From the NCBI GenBank assembly GCA_905178155.1, contig CAJINV010000001.1:14632142-14696141 (forward strand): 64,000 nt of DNA, written 5' to 3'. Below, piece after piece: positions 5,250-40,925 of the stretch. This DNA comes from Amoebophrya sp. A120 (lineage: Eukaryota > Protista > Dinoflagellata). Each line of letters starts with the position of its first letter. Positions within the stretch are counted from its first letter, which is position 1. Under the pieces are notes generated by a model. That model was not told where the DNA came from and made no database searches. It was given only the letters and a program-made list of their open reading frames with translations. The position numbers and the translations under genes are program-made.

Positions 5250-5377
5250 GCCGGATCTTACTTTTCACCGTTCTCGTGGTCAGGATCCTGGTTCCGTCCC
5301 ACTAGTCACCCACCCGGCCGGGCGGGTGAGAAGTGGGACGGCCACAAGAACTCGTCAGAATTTGTTACCCCGCTCTA
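5250..5377 (-). mobile_element. Putative DNA-transposon (hAT-like) terminus
   Basis: Reverse complement of 5361-5377 (TAGAGCGGGGTAACAAA) matches 35290-35306 (TAGAGCGGGGTCACAAA) at 16/17; both are followed inward by CCG.CCGGGTGG. Confidence 0.4.
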
Positions 5378-5934: not shown

Positions 5935-6001
5935 GTCTGTTTAGTTTTAGTTCAGTTTCTCATAATGTCATTATGAGAAACTGAACTAAAACTAAACAGA
6001 C
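5935..6001. repeat. Perfect 33-bp inverted repeat with 1-nt loop
   Basis: GTCTGTTTAGTTTTAGTTCAGTTTCTCATAATG-T-CATTATGAGAAACTGAACTAAAACTAAACAGAC, with AGG on both flanks. Confidence 0.95.
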
Positions 6002-9000: not shown

Positions 9001-9207
9001 GTGCCGCAAACGTCGTGTACATTCATTGACAATTTTAGAGATATTAATGATAAAAAAATATATTATCAGTCGGCGAGAAACAAGATATGTACATTTGAAA
9101 CCAGCACATCCACAGAGAAAATGACAAGCAGGTGGGTCCGCAGCTACTTTTTCTGCCACCTCTAGTGAAGTGATAGGCAAATAAAGCGTAGAAAAAAATT
9201 GAAACTT

Positions 9208-20400: not shown

Positions 20401-22592
20401 AAATTCCTCATCTGCATCTGGCCCTAGGAGTTGGGGAACAACAGGGCGGTTCCTGCTCAGAATTTCTGGTCTAGGTGTTGCCGCACCAGAACTTTTATTT
20501 GTACCAGCAGGAACAGCTTCTACTTCACCTCCAAGTGGTCCTGCAGCTTGGCCCTCCGGACTGATTATCGCATCGTAATTTTGTGGAATCCTCTTTGGGT
20601 TAGTGTTCTTTCTCCGAGTAGATGGCGACGGCGTTCTTTCGTTATGCGTTGTAAAATTCACGTCAAAAGCACTCGCGTTTTGCACCGCAAGGGCGAAGTC
20701 CAGATCGTTTTGGCTGCTGTGCTGGTTGGTCGAATTCAGAACGCTGGTGTAGTTAACACTGTTGGAGGAGGTCGATGTAGCGAAATCTGCACCAGAAGGA
20801 TGCGCAGGTGGAACGATCGCAGCTCCTGCTGTTGTTTCTTCATTTCGCTTATTTATTCCAGCACAACCACGAGATCTAGAAGGAGAATCACTGCCGTAGT
20901 TCGCCGCTACTTTACTACCAACACCCATTCCGAAGATCGGATCGTCGGACCCAGCTTCTCCTTCAATTCGGCGTTTTCTTATGCGGTTTTCACGGTCTGC
21001 TGCTGCTGCGTCTTCGCGGATCGCGTTCGGATTGATGAGCATTTGCAGGGGCGAAAAGGAGTCCAGGCCGGAAGTTGGTTCTGTCGTGTGTTGAGGATGT
21101 AGTCGTCGACGTCGTGTATGTCTCGGATTATACTAGCGCCTCAGTCACAGTCATTCAGGGTGAGCGAAAAGGGAAAAGATTTCGCGCAATGAATTAAGGA
21201 TAGGATTCTTTGCAACATCAACATCTTCTAAGTACTATAGTTATATTACAAAAATCACACTGTACCATCCAGAAACAATATCTTGGGGTCGGCGATGAGC
21301 TCAAGCGCAACTCGTATTGGTGTTCCTGTTTGATGCAGCCGGTGGAGTTCAGGCACCTGCACCTCGACGCTGTCGTCTTCTACATCTACTGAAAAACCAA
21401 AACCACTTTGCCCGCCTGCCTCTACAACTGGTGTAGTAGCTTCTAACAGGAACCGCGACGAGAACGAGAGTCCAGCAGTTTGCGAAAGTCCGTGTCCAGC
21501 AGGCCAGACCCCGTTTTCGTGCAGCTGCAGACCCGAACAAAAAAACAAGTCGTGGTGAACTACAAGCACGGTTTCTTCTCCTTCATGGTTCCTAGGAAGA
21601 TCTTCCGGCCCCCTCACCGAGTCCGCTGACGGCCGAGCAGCAGCACTACAACTGTTACTAGCCGGATAACCACGGTCCCCCGCATAGTTGTTCTGCTTTG
21701 CGTAAGCACTTCTACCCCCCGCACGCGCACTGCTCTCCTGCAACTGCTTATCATTTGAGGAATTCGTAAGAAGAAGTGGCTCTGGTGTCGCAAAGGGACA
21801 AGTTGCAGCATGGAGCCGGACGACGCATGGCAGCTTACACAGGTTGCGAGGAGCATCTCGCTCAACCACGTCGATAGAGCTGTAGTGTTGGTGGAAAAAG
21901 CAGACGCGAGTGTCTGTTTCACGTGCTTGTCCAGCTCCAATTGCGTTATTTGATGAACTCGGTCGGGGTGTGGCTGTGGCTGCAGTCCATAACGCGCAGG
22001 GACGACATACGTGCTCGTGCACCTGGACGAAGGGGTCACTGTACACCAGTGTGGACCGGCGGGCGGCCTTACGACGGCGTTTGCCGACTCCTTGATTGTG
22101 ATGGTGCACTTGATGGTAGTCCTGCGTGCTCGCAGTGCGCCAGAGCAATGGGTACCACGCAAGATCGGCGCTAAGGCCAGGTACCAGCTGCTGCTGCTGC
22201 TGCTGGTTGTGGTTGTAGTTCACGTGCAGGACCAAAGCTCGTCCATCTTCATCAACACTCTTGTTGACTTCATCATCTCGAGCTTGACCGAACTCAAATG
22301 GAAATGCTTTGTCACCGGTGGGCGCGCGGTCACCGCGCGCCTCTTCTGACCATTGCCAGTGCCCCAGAGCCGTCCCCGCGTCGTCTGCCACAGAGCCGCC
22401 CCCGAGGAGAGAACTAGGCATGCCAGTAGTGAACTCCTCGCTCCAAGGCTCGTCCCATACGGATTGGACTACCTCCGCCAATGCGTTCACGGCCGCCGTC
22501 GCCGCTTCAGGTAGGCTAATTCCGAAGTGCTTCTGGCAGTCCTCGTTCGCCTGCAGAAGCAGCGCTCCTGCCATCAAAATGGGCCAGGCCAT
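14413..22592 (-). CDS. Chimeric multi-exon protein: N-terminal hydrophobic leader, ABCG Walker-B fragment, basic Trp-repeat (Sfi1/IQ-like) region, divergent adenylate kinase domain
   Basis: GT-AG introns 21081-21265 (ILFLD-E-PTSGLDSFS), 18721-18934 (FGAPASGRP-AAIRVLTQSLRIPVVITGD), 15395-15602 and 14637-14887. ADK exons: 15804-15603 (GGLVSD...GFVLDGFPRSIGQA), 15394-15320 (RMQGTWIHLGSGRLYH), ~14936-14888 (PKSLTAGPEYMRDDVTG), 14636-14413 (EALVQRPGD...RLVAYNKEVTPLLEYY). Splicing between ~18650 and 15805 is unresolved. Confidence 0.75.
17545..17632. repeat. Degenerate 12-bp minisatellite (ACCAMATGACYC-like) inside the large ADK intron
   Basis: ACCAAGTCACCC/ACCCAATGACCA/ACCACATGACTT/ACCAAATGACTC units. 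Confidence 0.6.
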
Positions 22593-23150
22593 GATTTTAT
22601 ATTTTTTTTTCGATTTTTTGCGAAAAGCCAAACAGTAATTTTCGTACGATTTTAGCTACGAACTGGAACTGCAACAATGCACTATCAATTACTTATCTCA
22701 TGTTAAAGAAACGCATCAACATGGCTACGACGTGACTCAAGCTTCTAGTATAATTGCTCTGACACCCAGGTGGGCTCTCGGCTGCATCGAGCGATCTCCT
22801 GCAAACGACCCAAAATACGAAACGAAGGAAATAACATATCGCGTGACCCGGACGAAGAAAGTCTACGAGTGTCAACTTAGAAACAACAACCCTCTCCGAA
22901 TTCGATCGAACAAGAAAACGCTGATGCAATTGCAATTCCACGTTAGTCTTAGTATCCAATTATCTAATATTGATGCTCAGCGATTAATATAGAACGATTT
23001 TTGCAATTGCTGCTATGAATTTGAGTGCGCGCGCCACAACGATTGTACGATCCCCTCAGCAAGTGCAAGATCAAACTACGTACCAATATTAAAAATGTCT
23101 CAATACTATTTATCTTTGACTTTGCGGTCATGAGGTTGCATTTGCAAACA

Positions 23151-24000
23151 CTAACACGCAAGGACAAACCAGAAAACAGTCGCCCTCGCGGGGGCTTTTA
23201 TCAGTGCAACACCCGCATCGCGGTGCTGACGCTGAGGCTGACCAAGAGAAAAAGTGCATTCCCACATGCTGCATACACTCCAGCAGCCATATTTAATCAG
23301 TCTGCGGCGGCGCGGCCGCGAGGGCGCGACCAGCGTTGCCCAACCCGACGCGTGGCAAGCTTCCGGACCGGCCGGCTCGCTCGGACTCTCACTCTTCACT
23401 GAAGCTGCCAATCCCACAAAATGGGGTGGCCGCGCACTGCATCCGGCGGCAACCTGGTCCCGGGGGGGGCGAAACGCCGAACGACGGCGCAGGGCCTGAG
23501 CGGACGGACCGGGCGCGTTCTCCCAACGAACGCACCAAGCCACGCGGCCCCTGCTGCCGGTGGGCCCTGATTTGGCGCCCCGGTCGGAGGGCGCAGGGCC
23601 TGCCGGCCCTGCCGCTTCACTTCTGTGCGTGGGGGGGGAGAGGCGCCGGCGCTCGGGGAAGATCTCCGAAGTCAGCGCGCCAAGGTGGCGCGCGGGCCGC
23701 TCTTCCTGAAGCAGCCGGAACTCTTCTTGCAGATCAATCTTTCGCGAGTTCCCCCCTCAATACCGGCCGCCACGACGAACCTGCTCCCGCGCCTCTGTGT
23801 GTCCTCGGGGGCCGCAGAGCCAATACATAGGGCAGGGCGGCTGCGAATCCGACAGCGAGCCGCGGCGCTTCCCTGAAACTCCAACTGAGGCAAAGCCGAA
23901 CCGGGATAGGCAGGCGAAGGGCCTCGGGCTCGGGCGGGAGTGTATCTATTCTTGCTCTGCACGTAGGCCCAACATTGTTTCGCTCTGTACGTAGGCCATT
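23151..24000 (-). pseudogene. GC-rich decayed third copy of the three-exon family (G-psi)
   Basis: 23782-23735 encodes RFVVAAGIEGGTRERL, an ungapped match to G1 RFVIVPESGGLTPEKL and G2 QFVITAEVGGITHEDV. 23291-23251 encodes YGCWSVCSMWECTF, matching G2 VGCFGLFSVWKEGF. It sits downstream of block X exactly as G2 does. Confidence 0.6.
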
Positions 24001-24098
24001 TTCTAGTGATGTTTTTGACCTGTCTGCATCGGAGCAGAAGGTCTTGCCCGACTTGAATTAAAATTCTGCGCCGGCCAACAACTTTGACTGAATAACGC

Positions 24099-24460
24099 GA
24101 ACGCCATGATGTAGAGACAACTTGCGCTACTTTTCGCTCGATTTCCATACTAGTCGCCTTTTTGCGCTCGATTCCGACGAAGTCGATGCACGACATGGGG
24201 AAAACGCAATCACCTCTCATTCTTCTTGTCATGATAGATCTCGTCCGGATTATGTATCTCTTGATGACTTTTTGGATCGAAAGTACGAGCAGCACGCTGG
24301 AAAATAGCGCCTTATTAACTGTAATTAAAAATCTAGAAGTCGAAACACGGCATTTGATTCCAGCTCTCAACGTGCTCTCACGACGAGTGGTGCTAAGTAG
24401 GATACTTGCTCCTCATAGCAGCATATACCAAGAATTAAAATTTGCTCTTGATGTTCTACA
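24099..24460. repeat. Non-coding block X, copy 1 (upstream of G-psi)
   Basis: Aligns with 34933-35289, e.g. TTTCCATACTAGTCGCCTTTTTGCGC.CGATTCCGACGAAGTCGATGCACGAC and CACGGCATTTGATTCCAGCTCTCAA. Confidence 0.9.
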
Positions 24461-25394
24461 TCCGTCGCTAAACGAACCTATTTGTGTTTGGTGGTCTGCG
24501 TGTCTGTGCAGTGAACGAGGCACGTCGGGTTTCCTGTACTTTATGTTTGTAATTGCAATTGGCAAGCAGAATAAAGTACGTGAACGCGCCCGGACCCTCG
24601 AAAGACAAAGCCGAAAGACAGCCTATTCCGCTCAAACCTAAGCGGTATTGCGTTGGGCCCTCAACTCAGCGAGTCCGAATTTTACATCCTAATCCTGGTA
24701 TTGCTTGTCGTTTGAAACAGAAACTCAAGTCTGACATTTTACGCGACTCGGGTCTCCTCCCGCGGATCTATCTTTATCTTGGCAGCGGGCGTGGACCCTC
24801 TGTTTCTGTAGCATCACAAGCTGTAAATTCTAGTACATTTTCCAACAGCAAATTCGAACAAAAAAAGCTGTGCTTTTCAATTTAGAGACAGCTTTCTGCT
24901 TGTGCTTGTTTTGATTTTCGCTCATGATTTACAACGCACGCGATCAGAGGCACTAACTCTAAGTGAATTTTTCCGCGCTTCGGAATTACAACGAAAGCGA
25001 AAGGGAAAGCGAACGCGAAGACGGAGAAGATACAGACATATTAGAGAGTACGTAGTCACTGGATACAAAAAACGGATAAACATTTTATCGCGATATTTAC
25101 ATTTATTTCTTTGCACTGATTATCTGATCATCATCATCTACTGCAGGGAGGTGTGTTCGACGACGTGGAGACCTTTTTTGAGAAGATTCCGAAGGAAAAA
25201 GAAAGGATACGACCGATACATCTAGCACTAGATACAGTTCACCTTCCTTGTCTCGTCATACTTCATTCGGTGTGTTCCTGTAGGGTCTCGCGATGACAAT
25301 GAAAATATTTCGGTAACGAGGAAGATGCGAAACAATGTAGACGGGACGAATAAGCCACCTCTTGCTCTTGTTTGTCTTCATCCTGTCGACTGTA

Positions 25395-27951
25395 TCAGCT
25401 CCTTCTGCTTGCGTGCGATTGCGGCGTCCGGAAAGAAAGGCTGTCCTCCTGCTCATTCTCGACGGCGCGGCTAGCTGCATTCCGATTTTCATCGTTGACG
25501 CCATCTTCGGACTCTGACGACCGCGGGTACCAACCATCGTAACCGTGGGCTGTCCGCCAGGCTTGTCTTTGCGCAGCGGAAGCAGCCTTTTGCTTCTTCC
25601 TCGTGGAGAAAGCCGAATGGTACGACTTCAGACTACTGTAAGATGGCCGCCCCCTGCGTCGCTCGTAGTGGTGAAGCTCCTCACTTTCGTAACCCTCATC
25701 CGATGTGTCCCCGAACGGTAAATCGTGCACCTTCCACATTTCGGCTACATCGTCCCAGTTCACGTTCCACGGCGTTCTCGGTTTCTTGTCTCGGATCCAG
25801 TTCTTCCAGTATGTTTCAAACTCTTTTCGAATGTTGCCGAACTTGTCCAGAGCCTGGACATCGTGATCGGTACCAATACTGCGGACCAGCTCGCGCAGGG
25901 GAGCAATCGTCTCCGGGAAATGGTTGCACTGGAATCCCAACTTCGTAAACTCGTCCTGAAAGAACTGCAGGTCGTCCGCAACACTCCGCAGGTCGTTCTG
26001 CAGCCGTTGTTTCACACGTCCTATCACGCAAGCAATTTCCTGGAGGAGGTCATTGGTCGTGACGCTGGACCCGAGGTGAAAAAATCGCGCGGAAATTCCA
26101 ATCTGTCGCCCTAGCACGGGAACGAAAGTAGCCCTGATTTCCGCCATGGCACTCAGGTTCTCAACTCGGAACGGGTTTGTGATGGTCTCGCAAAAATCAC
26201 GAATAAGGTTCTTGTCGTCAGCAGCTGCTCCAAAAGTGTCGCCATCCTCAAACTTCTGGTCCTGCTCCAGCTGATCGCACGTCCGCATGACATCGCGCAC
26301 CACAAGCTTCAAGATGGCTCTTGCTGTTGTGTTGAAGTTGGTCGCAAAATAATTGACCCAAGAACGTGATCGCGAAAATGCTAAATTGTCAATAAATATA
26401 AATCATATTTTGCACGTCCACGCAGCACCACAGCATTGAGTTTCCTATTCCTTTTCCTATGTTGGTGTCGTATAATCATAAACTGTTGCAGGTGCTGACG
26501 AAGAACAAAGACAAAACGCCCGGATATTTGTCAACCATAAAATGTATCGACTATTGACGCAAAATGCTTCTGAATCTGCGAGAAGACCACGACGCAGCGC
26601 CATCACAAGCAGCACACAACTCATCAACATCAATAAACGAAAGATACCCTCTGGGAATGGGTCTCGGCCACTGGACAGAGTCAGCCGGCCATCCTGACCC
26701 CGGGTCCGCCAACCAGTCACGAGCCCGAAATTTCCCCATTCGTCCTTCAAAAGGGTCTCGGTCAGCCACTCCGCGTATTCCTGCGCGTTCATTTCTGCAG
26801 CAGCGATTATCGCTTCGTAGATGCCCTCGCGCTCACCTTCTTGATGGTGCTGTGGGGCAAAAGCAGGATTAAAGCACAGGAGGTCTTTCAAAAGCTCCCG
26901 AGCGAATTGCTTTCTGTGGTGTGTGAAGCGGAAACACTTACCGCCGGTCTCAGCCTCGTGTTTTATCCACTCGGACTGCGGCAGCTCGAATACGGCACGA
27001 ACGATGTTCCAGTAGTTCTCCCAGCGCTCAAAGGGCTCGCTGTACCCCATGCAGTTCCTGGTGCGGTACATGCGCATGCTCATCGTTCTCTCGCAGTTCT
27101 GCTCTTTGGTGGTGTTCTCCAGACTCAAACGAAAGAACATATTTTCGTCGCACGGTACACATCCACCAGCAACTACATTCGGTAAGAACGCATACAGCCC
27201 GTCGTAGAGAAAGCTCCGCGCTTGTTCCAGGGTCAAGTCGTAGAGGGTCCCTGCAAGGTTTTCGTGTACGTGTCTGAGTTTGAGAGCGGCTGCATTAAAA
27301 TTCAGACTCTTGTTATCTTCGTGAAACAATATCATCTTTAAAAAAAAGGGATATGGTGCCCTTCAACAAAAAAGTTAAAGTACCATGATCACCATGACGA
27401 TCTTCGCCATAATTCACCAGAAGATTGCGGTCTATCCACTCTTCAGCGATCACACCGGCGGGGCACTGGAGTTTTTCCGGTGTCAACCCACCGCTTTCCG
27501 GCACAATCACAAAGCGGAGGGCGCAACCCTCACCAGGTGGAATGTCATCGTCTGGATCTAGGAAACCAACATCCGGATTCGACGAGCTGGATGCCTTCGA
27601 CGCACGATCGCCACCGGTCGTGTGAAACCCTTCGAATTCCATGCCCTCTTCCACCTCCACAGCCTCTTCTTCACTAGCACTTGGTGTCGCAGCAGCTCCA
27701 TCCTTTACAGCCAGCCACTTTACCCGGTGAAGCGGCGGAAGTTTCTGCGATTCATCAAAGAAGCACGAGATGAACTCCAGCGCATTGAGGTGCTTGACCC
27801 GAAAAATCCTGGTGCTGTCGATGCACTTCATCACGCTGTGCCCCGCTAAGTTGAAAATGCGAATCTTTCGCTCGTGCGTTACACAGGCGGTCGCGGGCGC
27901 ACTGCTTGTTGCAGGCAACGTCGGGCAAGCCGGCTTCTTTGGAGACGGCAT
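25395..27951 (-). CDS. Unknown three-exon protein G1 (~699 aa) with ubiquitin-like-looking N-terminal header
   Basis: Exons 27951-27384, 27250-26648 and 26323-25395 joined by phase-1 GT-AG introns give 2100 nt in frame; all three exons align with G2. Confidence 0.8.
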
Positions 27952-28411
27952 CGTTTCTCTTTCTACTACTTAGCTGCTCTGGTACTACGGTTTCCCATTT
28001 TTCCTTTTCTCAGACTGCTTGCCAAACTTCATGACGTAAACGATACATAGCGACTGCATGCTTGCGACGTTTTCTAGAGTCTCTAATCGGGTGATGAAAC
28101 ACCATGGCGCTCTTCTGCGTGCTCATCTCGTAGTTGTAATGTACTTGTATCTTCTGCGTCGACATCGAAGTGGAAATCGTATATAAAGTACTTAATTCAA
28201 TTCATCACACCAACCCACTCAGCGTTGCTCTTCCGCTCTTCTGAGCTCGAGCTCCCTCGAAGTCGACAAGCGTGCCTTGACAAAGTAGAGCTAGAGACTT
28301 AGATCTCCAGAACGCGGCGAAGTAGAGATTTCACTTCTCATCGCTGCGCGCCCCTCCCTCGATTAATTTGCCCACGGCCCACACGCCGGGAAACTTACTT
28401 GCCTTCGGGAC

Positions 28412-28850
28412 GGATCAATAAATAACCCGAGCGTAAAACGAGTAGCGTGCCTCCTTCCTAATACATAGCAACCTAGTACCGGACACACGACAAAGACAAA
28501 GTCGAAGACAAACACGCACTGGCACTCGCTCCAGTCCCAGAAGAATAAACCCGAAACGAAGATACTTCGTTCGGAGTGGTCTCTGTCTCGTCTGTTCCAA
28601 TTTTATCATCGTCCTTCAACGTCGTGCTCCAGCTCCATCAAAACGCAGGATCATGCTAGACGGGAAATGCAGACCATGAGCCGACGGCACAGGAACCGGA
28701 GCCCCCCGCGCCAAATAATTGCTGCCACGCACAACAACACTCAGCAATCTTGCCGTCGCAGCGCGCCTTCGCAACGGCAATAAATGCCGCCGGAGATGAC
28801 ACAACACGGGCCAAGCGGGACGGGCTTTGCAGGTGGCCGGCGCCAAACTA
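28412..28850. repeat. Non-coding block Y, copy 1
   Basis: Aligns with 35834-36260 (GGATCAATAAATAACC.GAGCGTAAAACGAGTAGCGTGCCTCC...), ~90% identical by eye over the first ~250 bp. Confidence 0.9.
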
Positions 28851-28964
28851 ACACCAGGAAACTCATCTTGTAGCTGTAATTGTATCTGCGACATCGAAGC
28901 TCACACGAATAGTTTGGAGAGCATGAAGAAAATCGTGCCCTGAAGCATGAAGAAAACCAAAGTT

Positions 28965-29035
28965 TCGCAAGTCACTGCGCATTCATCAGGAGCAGGCACG
29001 GCCTGGACTCCTGATGAGCGTGCAGCGGCTTGCGA
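28965..29035. repeat. Imperfect 28-bp inverted repeat with inner CAGGC/GCCTG stem
   Basis: Arms 28965-28992 and 29008-29035 match at 23/28; all 5 differences are transitions. Confidence 0.85.
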
Positions 29036-29199
29036 CCTGTAAGTAACTTTGTTTCATCGGCTCACAAAAATCTTTGACAACCACAACTATCTGCACTTAC
29101 ATAATAAATGATCAGCGCTCACCATCAATCCGCTCAGCCTCACTCTGCCGCTCTTCTAAGCTCAAGCTCCGTCCATCGAAGTCGACGAGGGTGACTACG

Positions 29200-30335
29200 A
29201 CACAAAGTCGCTCGCTACGCGCCCCTGAGCTTGTCCATCTCCGTATCATATGCAACGTTAAGAAAAGGAAACGGGTTTTGTTTTTTGTTCATATTCCGCT
29301 CGCGCTCGGCTGGACAGAAATCAGCAACGCGACTAGGTACAAACGTGGGCCGCACCCACGCGCCGGGCAGCATGGCAGGAAGGCGCGCCACCCGGGGTGG
29401 CCACAATGACGAAGGGGCCCCCGACCGCCAAAAAGTTTCTGCGGCCCTGCAAAAGCGCCTCCGTGCGATCTTCGCGCTTCGGGCCCCGGCCTAGCCAATG
29501 GCGCTACTACTGGCCGACGGCAAAGAACACAGAGCGCGCCGCCCAAAACGGGCAAGCAACGCAGGCGGCAGGCGCAACGCAACGCCCGGCAAATCGCCAG
29601 GCGCCCGCGACACGAGGCGGGAAGCGCAACAACAAGCCAACCAGTCGCCCAGCAAAGGCCCCGGCGGTCTTGCCGGAAGCCGGGGCGCGAGGGCCACCAG
29701 GCAGGCGCCGGATACGCCCCGGCATAGCGCCAAACCTACGCGGGCCCGGCAGCGCTCCACAGACAAGGGGGCCCGCTGCGGCGCGCTCTTTGTTTGCGGC
29801 GCGCGAATTATTGCCAGGCTGATGCCCGCCGCCTGTATCTCATGCCTGTCGCGCAAAGTCCTCCGAACACCTAGCAAGTCGGGCGCGCGTTTGCTAGTAG
29901 TGGCCACCAATACTCCTAGTCCTGCCCGCTCCCGCAATGCCGGCGCCTGGCGGCGCGCAGGAGCATTTGCGTTCCGCGGCGGGGCCTTCGACGAAAGTAG
30001 ACGAATCAGGTGCAGGTGGCGCCGAGAAAAATAAGTAGTCCAATGAGTTCTGTTGAAGGCGCCGCCCCTGTGGCCGTGGTCGCGGAGGTTTTGCGCGCGT
30101 CCTCTTGGTCTAGGAGCTTGCAGAGGATTACTTTCCGAGTTTTCGCGTCGGGCCGCTCGTCCCTGCCTGATCGGGAGAGGGGCCCCACGCACGGACGAAG
30201 CTGGCGATCAATTGCGGCCCTTCCTCGCCAAGATCTCCCATATTGCACGCAACCCTTATGCCAGCTCCTTCGCGAATGGTCCGGCGGGCGAAAATTGCCA
30301 TCCTGAAAGGTCGGCGGTCATCTTGCGCTAAGTTC
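29200..30335 (-). pseudogene. GC-rich decayed gene Z, copy 1
   Basis: 30200-30335 aligns with 36830-36975; one minus-strand frame gives FQDGNFRPPDHSRRSWHKGCVQYGRSWRG vs FHERNFRPPNRQCGSWREARTQSGRSWRN, followed later by DQED vs DDED. Confidence 0.5.
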
Positions 30336-30427
30336 ACCTCAATGTGAATGCCGGGGAATATCAGTCTATGTATCTATGTGTTGACGAGTATTTGAATTTG
30401 ACAAAACGAACAACACGTCGGTCGCAG

Positions 30428-30900
30428 CACAGGCCCGAAGGTATTTCGGTTTTTGGGCCTGTTCTTCTTCGCATTTGTTCGCCTCAAGCAACTTTCCCCC
30501 CCGACCTGAATCTTCACTCTTTTGAGCAAAAGACCTACAACTTGCTTGCTGGCGGTTGGCATAGGCCCGCCGGTATTTCGGTTTTTGGGTCATTTTTTTG
30601 TCGCAATTTGATACCTTGCTCAAGTTCTTCCCCCGCTCTGAATCTGCATGCTTCCGACAGAATCCTTCAGAAGTTATGTTCCGCCGGCCTGCACAGGCCC
30701 GACGGTATTTCGGTTTTTGGCCCTTTTCTTCTTCGCATTTGTTCGCCTCAAGAAACTTTCCCCCCCGACCTGAATCTTCACTCTTTTGAGCGAAAGACTC
30801 ACAAGTTGCTTGCTGGCGGTCTGCACAGGCCCCACGGTATTTCGGTTTTTGGGTCCTTTTTGTGTCGCAATTTTTTCCCTTGCATGCTCAAGCTCTTCCC
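30428..30900. repeat. 132-bp tandem repeat, ~3.6 units in A-B-A-B (264-bp) higher-order arrangement
   Basis: CA(C/T)AGGCCC...GGTATTTCGGTTTTTGG units start at 30428, 30560, 30692 and 30824; units 1 and 3, and 2 and 4, are the closer pairs. Confidence 0.9.
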
Positions 30901-32143
30901 TGGGCCTGGTATTTCGCTTGTTGAATTCTTGTCCACCGTACCACGTAGTTTTCTTTTCGCTCACAATTCCCACGGATCCAGAGCCGATGCACAGCAGAAG
31001 GGAATTTTGTTCTCTCAACATAATCACTATGGTAGATCTCTATCTCCTGCCTTTCCTGATCACGCGTACGAGCACCACGCTCAAAAGCAGAACCGTTCTC
31101 ACAGTGTTTCAAAACCTTTTGTAGACGCTGTAATGATTGAGTACTTACTACTACTATCATGACAAGAGAGCTCTTCCCAGCAACTTTTTTGCCCTGGCCC
31201 TCTGCGGAACAACAAAGGTGTTGCCAAGTTTCATCGGCCTGCTTTTTTTCATGCGCTTCAACACCGAACCGTACACCACATTCATACATTTTTCACTCTT
31301 GTCGGTCGGCAACATACTTCTCAGAAGCAGAACACGATAGAGCCACAACGACACTCCAACCCAAGCAGACGCCATACATACATTACAAGATGCGTCGATT
31401 CATCTGGTGTTACTAGCGCATTTTTTTTTGTTTCACGTGTTATTTCAATTCACATATATTGACTGGAGGCGCTCGTCCGTATTGTTATTCTGTTCGATTT
31501 TGGAGCCCGTTCGACTTTGGTACTGGGGTCGGTTTCTCAGTTGATAGATTAGTATCTATTGTGCGATGACATCTCCGCGTTGTTCGATGTTCCGTGGCGA
31601 AGCAACACCTCTCTGGTTCTACATTATACAAAAACCTACTGGCATAAAGGGTTATACTTTTTATCTCAAGGCCAAACAGTCCGGATCCCAGGGATACATT
31701 ATAAATCCAGAACCAACGGCGCTGACACTCTCATATCAATTTTCTTAGTTACAAGTTTGTTAAAGTTGACGAGCGAAACGGAAACAACAATCACTGACAG
31801 CGAATTCTTGCTCGGCGTGGCGATACTCGACACAAAGGTTTGCTTTCGAAAGAATAAACGGTCGAGCTAGCATACCAATGTTAATACTCGTTCTTGCGTC
31901 ACTGCACCTGAGGCCCACCCAGCTGAGTGACACGTAGATCTTCTCCGAGCCACCTGCGCCTATCTATCTCTTATGCCTGTAGGAGGTAGGCGCATACTTT
32001 GTGGCAGATAAGCAACAACTCAAATACAGCTATCGTTCTCAATTTCCAGCAGAAGTTGTTCTAGTTGTAAGTACTGCGTCTACCAAGTAATTAGAAGTTT
32101 GACGTATGAGACTCATGCACAGCGTTCTTCTTCACGGCTGCGC

Positions 32144-34782
32144 TCATCTCCCCTCCTGCGAATCAGGTGTCCGGAACAGGGCATCGGATGGCTCCTGACT
32201 ATCACGTCTGGTAGCACGGTGGAGGTCGGGCTTCGGTTTCTTCCTCCCGTGCACCCACTCGTAGCGCTCGCTGCTCATGGAAAGCCGCTTTCTCGGCGAG
32301 TTGCTTTTACTGCGCTCCGACTTGGCCGAGGCATAGGACTTCAACGAGCTGCGGTTGGAACTCGGCTGGATAAACCTGCCGTCCGGGCCGATAAATTGCT
32401 CCGCGTCCTTTTCGGGTGTGTCGCCGTCCGCCAAGTCGTGCACCTTCCACATCTCCTTGATGTCGGACAGGTTCAGTTCCCAGGCCATTCTCGGACGCTT
32501 CGAGCTGATCCACTTCTTCAGCTCATCTTCAAAATCCTGACGAATGCAGAGTTCGTCTAGCGCGTCGACGTCGTGATCCAAGCCGATGCGTTTCGCCAAG
32601 TTTCGGAGAGAATCGATGGTTTCTGCGAACAAGGCAGTGCAATCGAAATCGCGCTTCACAAATTCGTCCCGAAAAAGCTGGAGATCGTCCGCAATATGAC
32701 GAAAATCGCGCTGCAGTCGTGTTTTTATTCCCCGGATGATGCGGGCCACCTCTTGCAGAACGTCCTTGGTTTCGTTCGTCGTGCCGCGAATGAGAAAACC
32801 GTCGATCAGCCCAAACTCCTCCGTGACCCTTGGCTGCACAAAACGCGTTTTGAGTTGCAGTGTGGTTGCCATGTCCTTCACACGGAAAAGTTTGTGCGTA
32901 ATGGTGTCGCAGAAGTTGTGGAGCGCGCTGTCACCAGCTGCAGCTCCCCCTTGTTCCGCGTTTTCGTTCAGTACATCCCGCTTCCGCAGAATGTCCGCGA
33001 CGATCACCTTGACATGACCTGTGGTGAGCGTTGTGTATGTCGTGTTGGCAGTCATTGATATTACTATTAGATTGCGTCGATTTGAATTTTTTGATTCTTT
33101 TATTTGTATGTTGTTCTTGTTACTATTCCACTACAATAATTCTTGAGGTCCAAGTTGTGCCCCGTGGTGTCATCAGTAGCAGTAACACTCACAGACACGA
33201 CACTTAAGAAAATTGGCGCTCACAAGAGCCACGTGTTTGATTTTACAACATCAGTTAAATTGGCGTGAGGCTACAAAGAGGAAAAGCAAGAACCCTCTAT
33301 ACTAGGTAGTCACTTGCTACTTACCTTTGTGGTGCGGCATGAGGGTATCTCGCGGAAGATCGAATCCTTCCTTCCATACACTAAAAAGTCCGAAGCACCC
33401 AACCGGCTCATCCTCGAGAAAAACGCGGCTTTTCACCCAGGCGCCGTATTCTGGAATGGTCAGATTTGCCGCTTCCACGACAGCGACGCACATGCGGTCG
33501 TCCTGCTCCACGCTTGGAACGCGTTGCTCGGTGTCTCCCGGGAGCGCCATGTCGAATAAATCCGGCTTGAAGTACATGAGGTCGTCAAACAGCTCCCTGG
33601 CGAAGGGTTCGCGATGGCGGTGAATACTGAAGCACGTGCCCCCGCTTTCGCGTTCGTACTTGAGCCACTCCGATGCAGGTAGTTCCCAAACGGCGTGAAT
33701 CAGGCTCCAGAAGCAATCCCAGCGCTCTACGGGTTCGCCGTAACCAAACACGTCCAAACAATACTTCTTTCCCGTCCGGCGCAAAGTAGAACCCTGAGAA
33801 AGCAGCGAGTCCCGCTTGTCTCCTTGCGAAGGATTACTATCACAGGGCACACATAGTCCCTTGATCTCGTCGGGCAGCGCGATGAAGACACCGTCGTACA
33901 ACAAACTCCGTGATTGCTGGAGTGTCAGAGATCGCAAGGGCAAGGATTCACCGTTACCACCTGCAAATGCAACACATATATTTTTCTTTAATAAAGTGAT
34001 AGTATCACTTTCAATTTTTTGGTGGCGGAGATGGTACACAACAAAACCTCTGGTCGACGTATGCTATGGGTCTACATCTGTGTCGTCTGACCAGACAAGA
34101 ACTCATATTTTAATTACTTATCACCCTCCCCCTCGTCTTCGTGGCCGCAAAATAAAGGGTCAGGGTGTACATATTCATCGAAAAACAATTGCAATTTATG
34201 AAAACAAAGACGAAGTCATAATCTATGATCAAAAAACATAAGGAGCAACAAAACCAAAGCGGTTGCAGTATGTTGGCGAGCATCAAAGTCCATGTCCACA
34301 TGATCGAAAAACGCTCTCTCATCAGTACCTCGTCCTTCTCCTTGTGTCTCGGTCTCGCCGCCGTAGTACCTCGGGCGCCCAAAAACTAGGCGGCACAGAT
34401 ACTTGTAGTAGTTCTCGTTGGGTCGACGCTGCACATCCTCATGCGTTATCCCACCGACTTCCGCGGTAATTACAAACTGAAACACAAAACGATCAACATC
34501 AGGAATTTCACTCTCCGGCTCGAGAAAAGCTGGCTCGTCATCGCTCAATGCGGCTGCATCGTCGACCACCAGCCATTTGACCCTGTGCAGTGGCGGAAGC
34601 TTTTGACTGCTGTCAAAAAAATCTCCGATGATCCCCAGCGTCGACAGGTGTTGGACCTTGCGCACCTTCGTCGTGTCGATACGTTTTTCAATACGCAGCG
34701 CGGACAGGTTTTGCACTTTGATTGTGCGCATTGTCTGTGCGAATTCATCGACCTGCCGTCGTGCGGCTCCTGGGCTCGACAT
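32144..34782 (-). CDS. Unknown three-exon protein G2 (~654 aa), paralog of G1
   Basis: Exons 34782-34329, 33960-33325 and 33018-32144 joined by phase-1 GT-AG introns (G|GTACTG...TTGCAG|; G|GTAAGT...CACAG|) give 1965 nt in frame. Motifs shared with G1: FFD.SQKLPPLHRVKWL, LTL.Q.RS.LYDG, ERW..YW/FW, ADDLQ.F.DEF, EMWKVHDL. Confidence 0.8.
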
Positions 34783-34932
34783 TTGAACTCTATGTATCTA
34801 TATATTTGATGACGTTGTACTTGGAGTCTCAATCTTCCAAGATGAAGTTGACGTAGATCCTCGACCTCGTCTGACGCTACATGAATAAAAACTGTGCCCT
34901 TCTACTTCTGAGTGTGAAAAGCGCCCGAAGCG

Positions 34933-35289
34933 GAACGCCGTGATGTGGAGACAATTTCCATACTAGTCGCCTTTTTGCGCACGATTCCGACGAAGTCGAT
35001 GCACGACTACATGCGGAAAACTCACTCATCTCTCCTTCTTGTCGTTATGATAGAAGATCTCGATCAGACTATCTCTTGACTCTCCTGATCGCAAGTACGA
35101 GTAGCAGCCTCGAAAGAAGTACGCCCTTTTCCACTGTGTTTCAAAGTGGGGAGGTCGAAGCACGGCATTTGATTCCAGCTCTCAATGTGATCTCACAAGT
35201 GGTGCTAAACCTAAAGATACTTGCACCTTACAAGCACAACATTGACATTCTATACCAAGAAAAAGAATTAGAGTTTTCTGTTCTATACC
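34933..35289. repeat. Non-coding block X, copy 2 (immediately 5' of G2)
   Basis: Aligns with 24099-24460; homology stops at the hAT-like end at 35290. Confidence 0.9.
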
Positions 35290-35480
35290 TAGAGCGGGGT
35301 CACAAACTCATTCGTTAACTCCCCACCGGAGTTACGGACCAACCGACCGGGTGGTCCCGAACTCCGGTGCCCCAAATGTTGCTTTACGTATTTGGCGAGC
35401 CCCAGAACCGGGAACAACCCGGAATAAAGTGTTATCGCCAGAACCGGGGACAGCGCGGTCATCACTGCTACCAGCACCTC
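35290..35480 (+). mobile_element. Putative DNA-transposon (hAT-like) terminus and subterminal repeats
   Basis: TAGAGCGGGGTCACAAA terminus shared with 5361-5377; repeated CCAGAACCGGG motifs at ~35402 and ~35438; truncates block X. Confidence 0.4.
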
Positions 35481-35833
35481 ATCAATCAATGAGTGAATGA
35501 AAAACTACATAATTGGGTGAGCCGGTCATATCCGTGCGATGACGAGGGAAAACAGAAAAACTGCGTCCCTTTGCACTTTAGCAGATCGAGACCACTTCAG
35601 AGACACAGAGAGACACATCGACGTTATTTGAGGCAAGAGAAGATCAACACAACCATGGGCCTCTTGGATCTTCGCAAATCAAATCTGGGATCGATTTTCG
35701 CAGCATAATCGCAACCGGACGACATAGTAAAAAATGCAAACGAAATCAATCTTCGCGACGAAGATAAAGATCGAGGGCTATCACGACGGCACCAGATCTT
35801 TATCTTTATCTTTTGTTAGTGTGGGTGTTTTCG

Positions 35834-36260
35834 GGATCAATAAATAACCAGAGCGTAAAACGAGTAGCGTGCCTCCTTTCATAGCAACCTAGTAGCGGAC
35901 ACACGACAGTGAAAAAGTCGAAGACAAACACGCACTGGCTCTGGCACTCGCTCCAGTCCAAGAAAAATAAACTCGAAACTAAGCTACTTCGTTCGGAGTC
36001 TCGGTCTCGTCTGTTCCAGTTTTATCATCGTGTTCCAGCTCCATCAAAACGCAGGATCATGCTAGAGGGGAAAAGCAGACCATGTTGAGCCGACGGCACC
36101 GGCGCCGGAGCCCCCGCGCGCCAAATCGCTGCCACGCGCAGCATCAATCAACAGTCTTGTCTTCGACGCGGCGCGCCGTCGCAACGGCAATAAATGCCGC
36201 CGGGAACGACACGACACGACCCAAGCGGGAGGGGCTTTGCAGGCGGCCGGCGCGAAGCAC
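35834..36260. repeat. Non-coding block Y, copy 2
   Basis: Aligns with 28412-28850. Confidence 0.9.
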
Positions 36261-36299
36261 CAGATAGCGAAAGCCCGGAAGGCGCCCCGCGCGCCGTGC

Positions 36300-36975
36300 A
36301 ACGCCAGTTGCCTTGCGGCGGCCGCCTCCGCCTCAGCAGGACAAGGCGAGGCGCGACATCGAGCGGCGGCCGCGCCCTCAAATAGGTGGCGCGAGATTTA
36401 TGCCCCAAGGCCCGCAGACGCTCCGCAGTCAGAAGATCCGGGCGGTCGCCGTTTCCTTGTATTTCTTCCATGTCATCATTGAGCCACTGCTACTGTTGCC
36501 TTAGGTCGTTTGCGCAACAGGCGATGGCAGGCTTTCGCGTCGAAATGGAAATCCTCCGTCTCGTCGGTATTTTCCTCGCTGCTCAGCGTCAGCATGTCGA
36601 GGAAGTCACTGCTGAGAGGGACAGCCTGTGATTTGTTTGGCAGTAGCCAGCACATCTTCATCATCTACACGACGAGCGACACGCGCCGGGATGTCGCGCC
36701 TGTTCCTGCTGATCGTCTTTGACTTGGACGCACTTGCCGGCCCCGGCCCGGTCCGGATCCTCCTTGGACGCAAGGCGGATCCTGCACCTTGCCGGCCCCG
36801 GCCCGGTTGCGCGGGCTTGCCTGGCCTGAACCTGATTGGTGGCCGCGCTGCGATATTTCGCCAGGATCTTCCCGATTGTGTGCGAGCCTCGCGCCAGCTC
36901 CCACACTGACGGTTCGGCGGCCGGAAGTTGCGCTCGTGAAAGGCCGACGGATGCCCATCTTGCGCTAACCTCGGT
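36300..36975 (-). pseudogene. GC-rich decayed gene Z, copy 2
   Basis: Homologous to the 30000-30335 part of copy 1 at DNA and residual protein level; same position relative to block Y. Confidence 0.5.
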
Positions 36976-37072
36976 TCAAAACGAGACTTCAAGCCGGCCT
37001 CCTTGTTTAAACCACTTCATAATATGGTTGGAGTATTTAATTAAGTGAAAATACCCGGCTGTGACCGCCTAT

Positions 37073-37127
37073 ACGCTCACTCACGCGTAACGTCATAGGC
37101 CCTATGACGTTACGCGTGAGTGAGCGT
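37073..37127. repeat. Perfect 27-bp inverted repeat with 1-nt loop
   Basis: ACGCTCACTCACGCGTAACGTCATAGG-C-CCTATGACGTTACGCGTGAGTGAGCGT. Confidence 0.95.
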
Positions 37128-37913
37128 CTTTCTCGCCTTCGACAAATAAGTTCTCAATTAAGTTGCAAAGACGACGTCATCTCGTTACATTCTGCGCTCC
37201 ACCTGGGGCCGGCGGCCTCACCAGCGTCACAATCGTCATAACCGTCCGGCGTCCTCCGCCGTGCACTCACTTTCACTCGTCGCCCTCCCTAGAAGCAAAA
37301 AAGAGCCTCGTCTCTTTTAGAAGGATAGCTTTGCTCTTTCGAAAGGCTTCGACACTGGCTGCAATGATAATGAAGCTACCGTGTGAGCTAACTCGCAGAA
37401 TGCTTTGGCTATGAGAAAGCTCTCATTTTCTTGTTTGTTCTCAGAGTTTTTTGGTTTCACTTTTGCGTCAAATTTATTGTATTGTAGTCGTCCTCCTCGC
37501 TTCAGTTTCACCAAATACCAGCATCAAATTTATAGACATGATGAAGTAGAAAAAGAGAAACTCAGGGCTGCAAATAACAGATGTCATGTTTTTACTCGCA
37601 ACCCAATCTAAGATGAAACTAGATTCCGTCAAAAATTGATACAATGTGAAAACGTAAATTATTGAAAATATCATGTAGTTGCCAAGCATCTGAAACCGTC
37701 ATACGCATACCCCATCTTCAAACAATATGTATCCAAAACGACCAAATTTCATAACTTTTGAAGCGACACCATTGAGTACCGTCACCGTTGGCTTTAGAAG
37801 TACAGAGACAGACTAAAAAATCTTTGCAACTGAAACAAAAAACTTGTAGTTGTACGGTGAAAAATGTTAATAAGGCCAAAAAAAAACAAAACACTTCAAC
37901 CAACTCGCAACAC

Positions 37914-38069
37914 CCAACCAACTACCCGACCCCAACCAACTACCCGACCCCAACCAACTCCACGACCCCAACCAACTCCACGACCCCAACCAACTCCGCG
38001 ACCCCAACCAACTCCGTGACCTCAACCAACTCCGCGACCTCAACCAACTCCGCGACCTCAACCAACTCC
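37914..38069. repeat. 18-bp minisatellite (CCAACCAACTCCGCGACC), ~9 units
   Basis: Read directly; variants change progressively along the array. Confidence 0.95.
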
Positions 38070-38091
38070 GGGGCCGCGACCTCTGGCGGAA

Positions 38092-38265
38092 ATCCTGCAA
38101 CTTCGCATCCTGCAGCTTCGCATCCTGCAGCTTCGCATCCTGCAACTTCGCATCCTGCAACTTCGCATCCTGCAACTTCGCATCCTGCAACTTCGCATCC
38201 TGCAACTTCGCATCCTGCAACTTCGCATCCTGCAACTTCGCATCCTGCAACTTCGCATCCTGCAA
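38092..38265. repeat. 15-bp minisatellite (ATCCTGCAACTTCGC), ~11.5 near-perfect units
   Basis: Read directly; two adjacent units share an A>G variant. Confidence 0.95.
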
Positions 38266-38370
38266 TCATCCTGCCCCATAATTTCCTGCCCCCAACTGCC
38301 CCCCTCCCCCAATACGCCCGCCCCGAGGTAGGGTCGCCAGAATACCTCTGCTAAAAACCGCGCTGCGGAA

Positions 38371-38559
38371 AAAAACAGGCGCGGCAAAAGAAAATAGTCA
38401 ATAAGAACCACTCCCCACGACTGCGTCGTGGGGCAAGCATTGTATTTGTTCTTCCCGTCGATTGTGAAAGAAGAAAGAACTTCACTGCCGCACCGGAAAA
38501 CAAGGAGTGAGATCTGCGCACAACGAAAAACAGGCGCGGCAAAAGAAAATAGTCAATAA
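38371..38559. repeat. 34-bp perfect direct repeat flanking a 121-bp segment that contains a 9-bp hairpin
   Basis: AAAAACAGGCGCGGCAAAAGAAAATAGTCAATAA at 38371-38404 and 38526-38559; CCCCACGAC-TGC-GTCGTGGGG at 38413-38433. Confidence 0.9.
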
Positions 38560-40285
38560 ATATAAAGAAAGGGCGGCGGGCCGCTCTAGGGCAGGGCCTC
38601 CGGGACCGCCCGGCGGGCCGCGGGCGCGCCCGCCTGCACTTCGGGTGGCCAATTGCCGCCCGATCGAGCCGAAATCGCGGGGCCCCGCGCGCCCGCCCTT
38701 GCATTGGTCCAAGCAGGAACGAAAGGCCTTGGGCGTGCGCGTGGGGCATGCAAGGGGCGCGCGAGGTGATAGGAAAGGCGGAACAAGTTGCCGCGCGGCC
38801 GCTTCGACAATGGCGCCCGGGGGCGGCGCGCGCCCAATCGGATGCCCAGGCAAAGGGGGCGGGAACATCAGACAGGAAGAGATGGCGCGGCGGGCAATGC
38901 AGAAGAGGGAAGGGGCGGCATGCCCGGGCGCCCGTCCTTCCGCGGCCTTTTGCAGCATCCACGCAAAGAAGCAAAAACCTTACCAAGCTGCGCGGATTCG
39001 TTTGCCTTTGTCCGTTGTCAAATACCAGAAGGCCGGGGCCCCTTCCTTCCTTGGGGTGGGTGCGCGGCAAAAAGAGAAGGGGCCGATGGGCGCCCGCTTG
39101 CCTGCGTGCCAACCTAGGCCCGTGCGCGGCAAAGTACCGAGATGCGGCGGCTACGCGCTTTCCCCGCGGCCAAAGGGATGGGCCCCCGGGTATTTCCGCT
39201 GTGCGAGGGTGGTTGCCCGGGCGAAGGCGGCGCGCTTGCGGATTAGTAAGCTTGGCGCCCCCCGCCCCGGCAAGGCGGGCGGGCCGGGCCCACTTTGTTG
39301 CTTGGGCTCACCTCATTAGATGGCCAGCATGGGTCGGCGCGCGTGCGATCCAAAGAAACAGGCTGGCGCCAGACAAACCACGGACCGACGCCCGGGCCCA
39401 TCCGGCCCTGACTGGGGTGCGAAGAAGGGGGGCGCCACCGAAGCCCGCCGCGAAAATAAAAAAAGGGCCGAGCGGCGCTAGCTTTAAACCACGGCGGCAG
39501 GGGGGGGATTGGGGCTTTCGTATGCGCCGCGCCGTCTGGGGGCGGGGGGCTAGCGAACCAACTCGGGCCCCCCGCCTTCGTTCCTTCCTTCGGACCCGGC
39601 CCGCCGCCCGGTCGATATCTGGCCCACCACTGGCCTCCACCCCCCGCCTTTGGTTCGTTTGTTGCCAAAGGAGACCCTGACCACTTCCATCCCCCCCCGC
39701 CCGCGCGCATGGCGCCCCAAGCCCGGCGGGCCGGTCCGTGCGTCGCCCACTAGGGAAGGCAGGGGGCCCCCGCTTCACGCCCTTCCGCCCGCTAGCTAGG
39801 GGAAACACAGACGGCCCCATCCCCAAGGAAGCTTTGCCGCAAAAGGCCGCGAACACAGGGGGCCCCCCCGCCCCGCCCCCGCCCCTCTCAATGGCGAGGC
39901 GGGCGGCCCCCGCCAATCCCCGTGGTAGCGCAGGGGGCCCCAGCTTCGCACCCTCTCAGCCGCGCCAAGGAACACAGGGGGCCCCCGCCCCCCAGCCAAC
40001 TTCCTCCCGCCGGCCCTTCTCCTCCACCCGCCGGGGGGCCCCGCCCCGTTCGGTCGGTCGCTCGCTTGGGAAGGCAGGGAGCCTTTGCTTCGCACCCGCC
40101 CACCCGCTAGAGGGAAAGCAGGGGGCCACCACCACCCGCCCTTGCGGGCGCAGGCCACGAACGCAGGGGGCCCCCGCCCCTCTCCGTGGTTAAACAGAGG
40201 GCCCGCCCCACCAAGCCCCTGCGGTAACACTGGGGTGCCCCGCCCGCCCCCCAACCTTCCCCCGCCCCGCTCTCTAGCTAGGGGC
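38560..40285. other. Extremely GC-rich tract with internal ~320-bp degenerate duplication (from ~39730 vs from ~40050)
   Basis: GGGAAGGCAGGG...GCTTC...CCCGCTAG...GAAC.CAGGGGGCCCCC occurs twice; the overlapping ORFs are Arg/Pro/Gly/Ala-rich in all frames. Confidence 0.6.
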
Positions 40286-40925
40286 TTTTGTGGTGGGGCG
40301 GTCTTGTTACACCTGGAAGAGTTAGCTACGTGATGCGAGTTCCTAGTGTTAAGTTCGTTACACGGAGGCCAGGACTAGTAGAAGAATGCAGTTGGTGTTC
40401 TATAACGTTTGATACACAAGTCGCTCATTGTTTGTATTCTTCTTCTTGGTAAAAATATCTTCTCTAAAGCCAGCGATGTAGTCATGGCCACGACTCTGCG
40501 AAAGGTTCAGTTCTATTTCTAATATTCAAGAAAGTGACAAAGTTAGTAGACTAAGTTTCGTACTAGTTTGCGTTTAGAGTCAGAGCACAAACGAAAAGTA
40601 CAAGGAAAAGCAGAAATTGAAAACTCGAAAATGAAGCATGGGTATCAACGTCAACCATTCGTCATGATGCCTCTCAGTTTCAACAAAAAGCACAGCTCCT
40701 TACTTTGTCTTTGTCATGCGGAGAACCACTTCCTGCTGCGAGTACGACACGCAGTTTGTAAAAATGCAACCACAACCAGTGCTACAGGATTTCTCTGTGC
40801 GGACAAAACAGTTACAGACAAACAACTAGCTGTACGTACTGCAGACCGTGAATCGACTCCGACTGTTGATGAATCTATCACCGTGCAAGAAAATGCAGCT
40901 CGTTGCAAAAAACCTTATAAATTTT

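Follow-up and report, generated by a model that had tools for sequence, protein, structure and literature searches.

Deamination of 5-methylcytosine, repeat-induced point mutation (RIP) and the APOBEC enzymes all push junk DNA toward A+T. RIP depends on a RID/DIM-2 methyltransferase acting before meiosis, and GC-biased gene conversion (gBGC) shows little dependence on neighbouring bases. The function of thymine modification in dinoflagellates has been an open question since the 1970s. We analysed 64,000 nucleotides of Amoebophrya sp. A120 (GCA_905178155.1, contig CAJINV010000001.1, forward-strand positions 14,632,142 to 14,696,141; hereafter the window), in which five short GC-rich tracts share a strand-symmetric, context-specific loss of T that goes beyond plain GC enrichment. 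The tests rest on this 64-kb window, on contigs aligned to it and on the literature. An earlier interpretation (the sequence-only reading) had proposed localised AT-to-GC hypermutation of dead gene copies, as a reverse of RIP; the observation behind it is real, and it is more specific than that reading could show.

The comparisons with described systems draw on the accessible portions of the articles cited. Fungal RIP is likewise a strand-symmetric, context-dependent change of composition, confined to duplicated or repeated DNA and with sharp edges (PMC7296669, PMC3318451). Unlike the C:G to T:A transitions of RIP, however, the tracts gain G+C; the near-pure transitions of RIP contrast with 65 transitions and 61 transversions among the copies of the fifth tract; the tract copies are near equilibrium rather than marked by a burst; and single-copy tracts are hit while several repeats are spared. 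The locus resembles an inverted RIP somewhat in composition and fails RIP's defining features.

The 5-hydroxymethyluracil (hmU) system of dinoflagellates, which involves TET/JBP enzymes, belongs to the same lineage and targets repeats and intronic and intergenic DNA. In Amphidinium carterae, hmU marks and silences repeats (PMC11572971), and a preprint on this species describes a GTT-rich peak motif, GTTGTTGTTG (10.1101/2023.11.30.569493); a TA/TC preference is cited for C. cohnii (PMC11572971). The tracts match this type of location, tract 5 being multi-copy and intronic and tracts 1-4 likely representing a dead paralog and a decayed duplicate, and the reported motif and preference overlap with G-T and T-C, the two contexts in which depletion is strongest here. 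Enzymatic oxidation of T raised T/A substitutions in mouse cells (PMC11804724). As far as their accessible text goes, the dinoflagellate hmU papers report silencing, not mutation or GC gain, and neither Amoebophrya nor the Syndiniales is mentioned in the main text of the PNAS hmU paper and the preprint.

GC-biased conversion has been reviewed as a driver of local GC content (PMC9099904). Tracts produced by gBGC are likewise short and GC-rich, change A or T (W) to G or C (S) through transitions and transversions, have a high equilibrium GC and damage redundant sequence. Our tracts differ in their strong, tract-specific dependence on neighbouring bases, and in that GC is not raised in adjacent introns and at third codon positions (GC3). 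The introner elements of Amoebophrya, which carry an 8-20 nt terminal inverted repeat and a 3-5 nt direct repeat (PMC7789003), concern tract 5 only: it too lies in a repeated intron without GT-AG ends, but this intron measures 2.5 kb as opposed to means of 120-240 nt, has no clear terminal inverted repeat and contains satellites. In Leishmania, modified-T loci with base J are likewise described as GC-rich (PMC5282726); the accessible text claims no mutational cause, and the hmU-only loci there are T-rich.

Five GC-rich tracts share a context-specific loss of T

The tracts are as follows.

Tract 1: 23304-23938, minus strand; GC 0.70; apparently spans A/B exon 1 and part of exon 2 in a single frame that contains one stop; contig identical, single-copy depth.
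Tract 2: 29347-30317; GC 0.66; single-copy; the other end of a duplicated unit, Y1.
Tract 3: 36089-36415; GC 0.70; continues block Z2 (35826-36088), a paralog of block Z1 in unit Y1.
Tract 4: 36735-36965; GC 0.69; paralogous to the end of tract 2.
Tract 5: 38560-40285; GC 0.71; dispersed multi-copy repeat, the other copies listed being about 85-94% alike.

The bounds of tracts 1-4, and an extent of 38274-40301 for tract 5, come from a 3-state Markov segmentation in which the tracts themselves served as the training set. Tracts 1-5 have a GC content of 0.693, 0.656, 0.685, 0.676 and 0.706; host coding DNA is at 0.56, and the stretch 21001-38560 outside the tracts is at 0.494. The sharply bounded tracts described by that reading were thus borne out (GC 0.66-0.71 vs 0.49 in the flanks), with the segmentation recovering their edges. 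These edges are abrupt: across 100-nt edges in the segmentation, GC changes from 0.40-0.57 outside to 0.57-0.75 inside, and the GC-rich coding patches tested fitted the coding model better than the tract model. Neutral DNA nearby leans toward A+T (introns 0.37-0.41, untranslated regions (UTRs) 0.43-0.44 and a gene desert 0.47), so that a value of 0.70 is not explained by drift toward the average of the host. The surviving A/T is clustered in runs, as had been claimed, with an AA/TT odds ratio of 1.86 in the tracts vs 1.20 in the flanks; that of GT/AC is 0.63 vs 0.96.

For tracts 1-4, and in tract 5 for the parts with listed matches, the sequence itself is real. Contigs of run X1 show 0 differences over 22200-28657, 28631-30491 and 36037-37906 at a depth of 21-25, and the three own-copy pieces of tract 5 that are listed, which extend to 39420, are exact in X1 and X2. 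A contig from another sample and study has 0 differences over 36424-36985, which covers tract 4; it is RNA-like in appearance. None of the runs listed with matching contigs is on record as RNA, contigs cannot rank expression, and the low depth of RNA-like contigs over the tracts is not taken here as a sign of silence. An indel-prone contig of X7 has 0 substitutions over 29495-29689, part of tract 2. A base-calling artefact had been named as a possible refutation, and errors in calling or polishing long reads from modified DNA could still appeal to the fact that X1 and X2 represent one sample, possibly the assembly's own reads, so that X1 may not be independent. However, the tracts passed this check, short-read-type contigs of X1 and X2 matching with 0 differences and contigs of other samples agreeing; the artefact is effectively refuted for tracts 1-4, and we hold its probability to be close to nil.

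The signature lies in the base preceding T. In all five tracts, and on either strand, T/(T+C) is 0.15-0.33 after G or C and remains at 0.31-0.55 after A or T. After A/T the ratio is the same in the tracts as elsewhere (ATT 0.54 vs 0.51; TTG 0.53 vs 0.51), whereas after G/C it drops (GTC 0.16 vs 0.55; CTC 0.21 vs 0.61; GTA 0.12 vs 0.36). By offset, the log2 odds are -1.5 at -1, -0.46 to -0.74 at -2 to -4, -0.58 at +1 and +0.26 at +2, while 360 simulations of context-free W>S change gave 5'-neighbour values of only -0.10 to +0.03 (sd 0.11-0.16). Tracts 1-5 individually score -0.73, -1.44, -1.70, -1.46 and -1.89, as compared with a mean of -0.11 (sd 0.37, minimum -1.04) in 70 segments of 650 nt elsewhere; tract 1, taken alone, falls within the range of these segments. 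The effect is still strong when G is compared with A as the neighbour (-1.70 +/- 0.17), and with homopolymer runs removed the tracts score -0.74 vs +0.45 to +0.69 in the desert and genes. The gene desert (15 kb) scores only -0.21, and live genes with their introns are also without the signature. Leave-one-out tests showed it to be common to unrelated tracts, clearly in four of the five and weakly in tract 1. When trinucleotides were fitted, a context-dependent model gave a deviance of 75-84 vs 348-368 for the context-free one, with a fitted mutability order of G>C>A>T on the 5' side and C highest or near highest on the 3' side.

Other parts of the window were also scored. A sixth, weaker tract at 3798-4238 (GC 0.62, log2 odds -1.05), beyond the range of the sequence-only reading, has the same signature. 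Two degenerate tandem arrays at 1-2100 (41-nt units, then roughly 100-nt units; GC 0.57) show a mild form of it (G vs A -1.28). The stretch between tracts 3 and 4 (36416-36734) is without it (GC 0.55, +0.23) and may be a later insertion or a protected stretch. The region 2400-18900 holds about 16 kb without a convincing gene at a GC of about 0.46-0.47, which is unusual in a compact parasite genome. A short repeat in 35320-35500 is high-copy (depth 290 at 35346); like a 132-nt tandem repeat in 30427-30900 (bin depth 159), it is of roughly ordinary GC.

Origins of the tracts

Tract 1 has to be read against two genes and their upstream elements.

Gene A: 24696-28021, minus strand; exons 28021-27383, 27249-26648 and 26323-24696; about 700 amino acids (aa); spliced RNA-like contigs.
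Gene B: 31394-34870, minus strand; exons 34870-34327, 33958-33323 and 33016-31394; about 655 aa; spliced RNA-like contigs.
Motif TGTATCTAT: 23941-23949, at the edge of tract 1.
Block U1: 24080-24460; ordinary GC; paralog of U3 (34915-35290) and U2 (31040-31113).

Genes A and B, 33-39% identical to each other, appear from database searches to be an orphan family. A protein search with gene B exon 3 gave one match among 1144 candidates, an Amoebophrya sp. A120 protein that shares 69% identity with this exon; longer forms of the query found 0 among 2930 candidates, and gene A exon 2 found 0 among 1474. In a Pfam scan of 13 proteins, none of the five A/B exon open reading frames (ORFs) had a family above cut-off, an Atlas search with a homologue returned sub-threshold leads only, and no relative of gene B exon 3 was confirmed among viral_contigs. 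Both genes are apparently expressed, splicing being seen in the RNA-like contigs of X3 and X4, two runs from one sample, and their canonical GT-AG introns lie at matching positions. Gene A is of ordinary composition, with introns at GC 0.37-0.41, and the GC3 of the two genes (0.58-0.69) is inside the host range of 0.53-0.71. Contigs whose fit is confined to 32406-32857, where depth is doubled, have loose ends at either side and suggest a further close paralog of gene B elsewhere. The long ORFs of the window lie on the minus strand; GAS2 and peptidase M16 were above the Pfam cut-off, and an MFS match was just below.

The evidence gives moderate support to a dead paralog of genes A and B as the likely origin of tract 1. 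Under a mutated-codon model, its minus strand matches the end of A/B exon 1 at 27.3 bits, the best of 10 tract/strand tests, and 0 of 250 tract-like Markov nulls scored as high. The match aligns RFVVAAGIEGGTRERL with RFVIVPESGGLTPEKL and QFVITAEVGGITHEDV and contains the E>G, K>R and H>R changes; it runs on in frame into an exon-2-like block that leaves no room for intron 1, the two blocks being 62 codons apart vs 46 and 58 in spliced A/B. Synteny points the same way. U1 lies upstream of tract 1 as U3 does upstream of gene B, and a U block together with TGTATCTAT precedes both; among the four exact plus-strand matches of this motif in the window (18913, 23941, 30369 and 34793), the one at 34793 is 11 nt ahead of the gene B start codon and the one at 30369 is just outside tract 2. 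As to intron 1, which is present in both live genes, its apparent absence from tract 1 may reflect intron loss, or divergence before intron gain.

The earlier claim that tract 1 keeps motifs of genes G1 and G2, which we take to be A and B, held for the minus-strand match to exons 1-2, whereas plain tblastn of tract 1 against A/B gave no match and other scorings were marginal. No ancestor of tract 1, of tract 5 or of most of tract 2 emerged within the window from alignments in RY space or directional DNA alignments, and chance matches similar in size and z to that of tract 1 arise for other tracts. One such candidate, in which the plus strand of tract 1 was matched with exon 2 (PCCRWALIW...GLPA), reached 31-34 bits in one set-up but only 20.7 bits (p 0.16) vs a tract-like null; its rejection as probable chance shows that such matches arise easily. 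Tracts 2-5 were also tried as A/B paralogs and were not significant after ten tests (best p 0.036).

Tracts 2-4 are, from their alignments, parts of two copies of one decayed unit.

Block Z1: 28400-28848; part of duplicated unit Y1; RNA-like contig over 28372-29075.

Z1 aligns with 35826-36258, and 30221-30347 aligns with 36854-36984, so that tracts 3 and 4 correspond to the upstream unit at 28634-28848 and 30221-30347. Two tracts had been taken as copies of a decayed gene Z; the copies stand, but protein coding was not demonstrable. Tract 3 is continuous with paralogous DNA of ordinary GC and gains G/C along the alignment: from Z1 to tract 3, 13 of the 17 W/S differences are toward G/C (p 0.049; 10 transitions and 3 transversions vs 3 and 1 in the opposite direction), as compared with 4 of 11 in Z1/Z2 just outside the tract (Fisher p 0.053). 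Going from the end of tract 2 to tract 4, the count is 12 of 15 (p 0.035; 9 transitions and 3 transversions vs 3 and 0). Both Z1 and tract 3 have the signature over 168 nt; the U blocks, Z ends and tandem repeats are not GC-rich. The RNA-like contig over 28372-29075 is without a long ORF and may represent a non-coding transcript or a dead-gene remnant.

Tract 5 is a multi-copy repeat and not a dead gene. A match to an intrinsically GC-rich transposable element (TE) family had been named as a refuting result, and tract 5 is the only one of the five that is a multi-copy element.

Non-canonical intron: 37865-40378, minus strand; 2514 nt; plus-strand ends TG..AG; holds tract 5.

The joint 37864-40379 is present in RNA-like contigs of X3 and X4, and parts of the intron are multi-copy; over 38684-40585 the bins have depths of 59-126, while single-copy DNA is at about 24. 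The intron would lie in the 3' UTR of a GAS2-domain gene (40926-47960, 2344 aa). It contains 18-nt and 15-nt satellites, two identical 34-nt stretches in direct orientation (38371 and 38526) and, within tract 5, internal repeats of about 45 nt at 39690-40270. Among the 25 longest of 40 inverted pairs none is at the exact ends; a 22-nt, 77% pair joins 37902-37923 and 40320-40341. A short sequence at the intron edge (40344-40380) recurs at other loci in loose ends of X4 and X7 contigs and is a candidate terminal motif of the repeated intron. No Rfam family came near its gathering score, two weak miRNA matches on the 15-nt satellite being far below, and scanning metagenome_contigs for a tract-5 motif produced 0 matches.

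Between tract-5 copies (38560-39420, X1), 126 places differ: 65 transitions, 39 W/S transversions, 14 C/G and 8 A/T. A symmetric spectrum had been named as a result that would refute the hypermutation, and these differences are indeed balanced (51 W>S vs 53 S>W; transition/transversion ratio about 1.1). W sites vary about twice as often as S sites (51/271 vs 53/590, p 7e-5). Polarised by majority, a weak form of rooting, changes number 12 W>S vs 12 S>W among those of the 63 rows available that are backed by at least two contigs, one ambiguous row being dropped and four being GC-neutral. This 12:12 fits an equilibrium near 0.68, while decay to a GC of 0.45-0.46 predicts about 28-29% W>S (p about 0.02). 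Two loose-end copies compared by eye differ in direction, one being AT-richer (8 W>S toward the window, 4 of them transversions, vs 1) and the other GC-richer (4 vs 1). Consensus-polarised spectra of internal and tandem repeats were set aside as biased by anchor choice and saturation.

Competing explanations for the signature

We tentatively favour a local, context-dependent A/T-to-G/C mutational pressure on silenced T, most likely modified T, and regard it as possible rather than established. Repeat or likely dead-gene DNA would have been driven to about 70% G+C (equilibrium near 0.7) by a pressure, alike on both strands, under which T (read as A on the opposite strand) is lost chiefly where G or C precedes it. 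The silenced DNA would carry modified thymine, for which hmU or a derivative is the candidate mark, and mispairing or excision repair of the modified T would yield both T>C and T>G. Mispairing would give T>C, and excision with translesion synthesis would give T>G. A T beside a new G or C would become the next target, which would leave only A/T runs. The tracts would be silenced, and the pressure would be mutational and act in place. A slow equilibrium shift fits the data better than a one-round, RIP-like burst: because transversions are common and tract-5 copies differ symmetrically without a 5' preference, a T>C burst does not account for them. The RIP-like, T>C-dominated spectrum and the genome defence of the sequence-only reading are not supported, and its mainly A>G/T>C changes were not confirmed, with 17 transversions vs 18 transitions in tract 1 and 39 W/S transversions vs 65 transitions in tract 5. 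A 'reverse RIP', in which an enzyme would mark T after G/C in silenced copies and repeats and mispairing or repair would turn it into C or G as a thymine-based mutagenic defence, seems doubtful to us.

A context-free fixation bias should not create the signature, given that the desert scores only -0.21, and this bears directly on gene conversion. Under GC-biased conversion, whether at allelic hot spots or ectopic between copies, W would change to S in narrow tracts, redundant copies would be destroyed along the way and slippage would regenerate the A/T runs; the neighbour effect should then stay near the desert's -0.2 and not reach -1.5. Genes A and B lie between the tracts and show no rise in their introns or GC3, and tracts 1 and 2, at single-copy depth, are without a near-identical partner in the contigs. 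The tract sizes of 0.2-2 kb, the tandem array at the locus and the multiple copies of tract 5 are what conversion would lead one to expect, as are the common W>S transversions, a W>S excess in both transitions and transversions of polarised pairs (small numbers), the greater variability of tract-5 W sites and the lack of a 5' preference between its copies. Context-dependent repair could rescue conversion, which we consider rather unlikely; since it should not give a tract-specific neighbour effect with introns and GC3 untouched, a mutational pressure is favoured. Reverse-transcribed copies of hyper-edited RNA (A-to-I and U-to-C), which the apparent lack of intron 1 in tract 1 might suggest, are very improbable. 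T is lost on both strands, transversions are frequent, tract 1 keeps upstream sequence paralogous to that of gene B, and the most mutable context on the A strand is G-A-C (coding baseline), the opposite of the ADAR preference. ADAR disfavours a 5' G.

It is also conceivable that the tracts are intrinsically GC-rich inserted or selected elements, either a repeat family or structural DNA, and that tract 1 resembles A/B through an old relationship or partly by chance. The dispersed repeat of tract 5 sits within a non-canonical intron, and Farhat et al. report that GC content differs in such introns (PMC7789003). GC-rich TEs exist, the unpolarised differences between tract-5 copies are symmetric, and the marginal scorings of tract 1 and the similar-z chance matches in other tracts would fit as well. 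One GC-rich element family cannot explain the tracts, however, because unrelated tracts share the signature: tracts 1-4 have no match to tract 5 and single-copy depth, yet the same k-mer signature. Paralogous DNA of ordinary GC runs on into tract 3, which gains G/C as the alignment proceeds; the upstream block and 5' motif of gene B are collinear with tract 1; and Rfam offers no family near its gathering score; an origin as GC-rich elements is in our judgement unlikely.

Several observations weigh against the mutational pressure on modified T that we favour. Forward models with T>C and T>G fit equally, and composition cannot separate them. Other repeats of the window stay at GC 0.50-0.57. Among tract-5 transitions in the 63 rows, G/C is 5' of T in 15 of the 27 unambiguous cases, which equals the background share for T (0.54) and falls short of the 0.81 (p 0.002) or 0.72 (p 0.08) that ongoing context-specific T>C would give, and 8 of the 9 unambiguous W/S transversions adjoin a T run and are possibly due to slippage. 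At sites common to A and B, tract 1 has G/C in place of 35 of 51 W (18 transitions, 17 transversions) and A/T in place of 12 of 48 S, but the tract is saturated, its blocks were hand-anchored, and 35 of 51 is also the chance yield of a 69% GC sequence. Part of Z1 (28681-28848; GC 0.64) has the tract signature and yet lies under an RNA-like contig. The non-tract pair U1>U3 leans in one direction too (19/29, p 0.14), and the share of transitions in tract pairs, 25/32, is not significantly higher than the 39/65 in control pairs (p 0.11). In Breviolum minutum, hmU has no sequence motif (PMC11071213), and the hmU-rich A. carterae genome, with 44.8% GC and 56% repeats, is poorer in GC than its genes at 54.6% (PMC11572971). 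We found no report in the literature searched of hmU or a TET/JBP enzyme in Amoebophrya, and the accessible portions of PMC12695648, PMC12584245, PMC12005148, PMC6313786 and PMC12114471 contain nothing on hmU or GC-rich tracts in this genus.

Meaning for dinoflagellate genomes

In the open-access literature, we found no description of the tract pattern, nor of a thymine-based mutagenic defence of the 'reverse RIP' kind. Such tracts produce long spurious ORFs and conceal pseudogenes from homology searches. The signature, T lost after G or C, is easily computed; whole genomes can be screened for it, and the outcome can be set beside maps of hmU. If the favoured explanation is true, a strand-symmetric, context-specific push toward G+C would act on dead copies in a small dinoflagellate genome, in the direction opposite to that of the well-known mutational processes tied to silencing, and would represent a testable long-term consequence of thymine modification.

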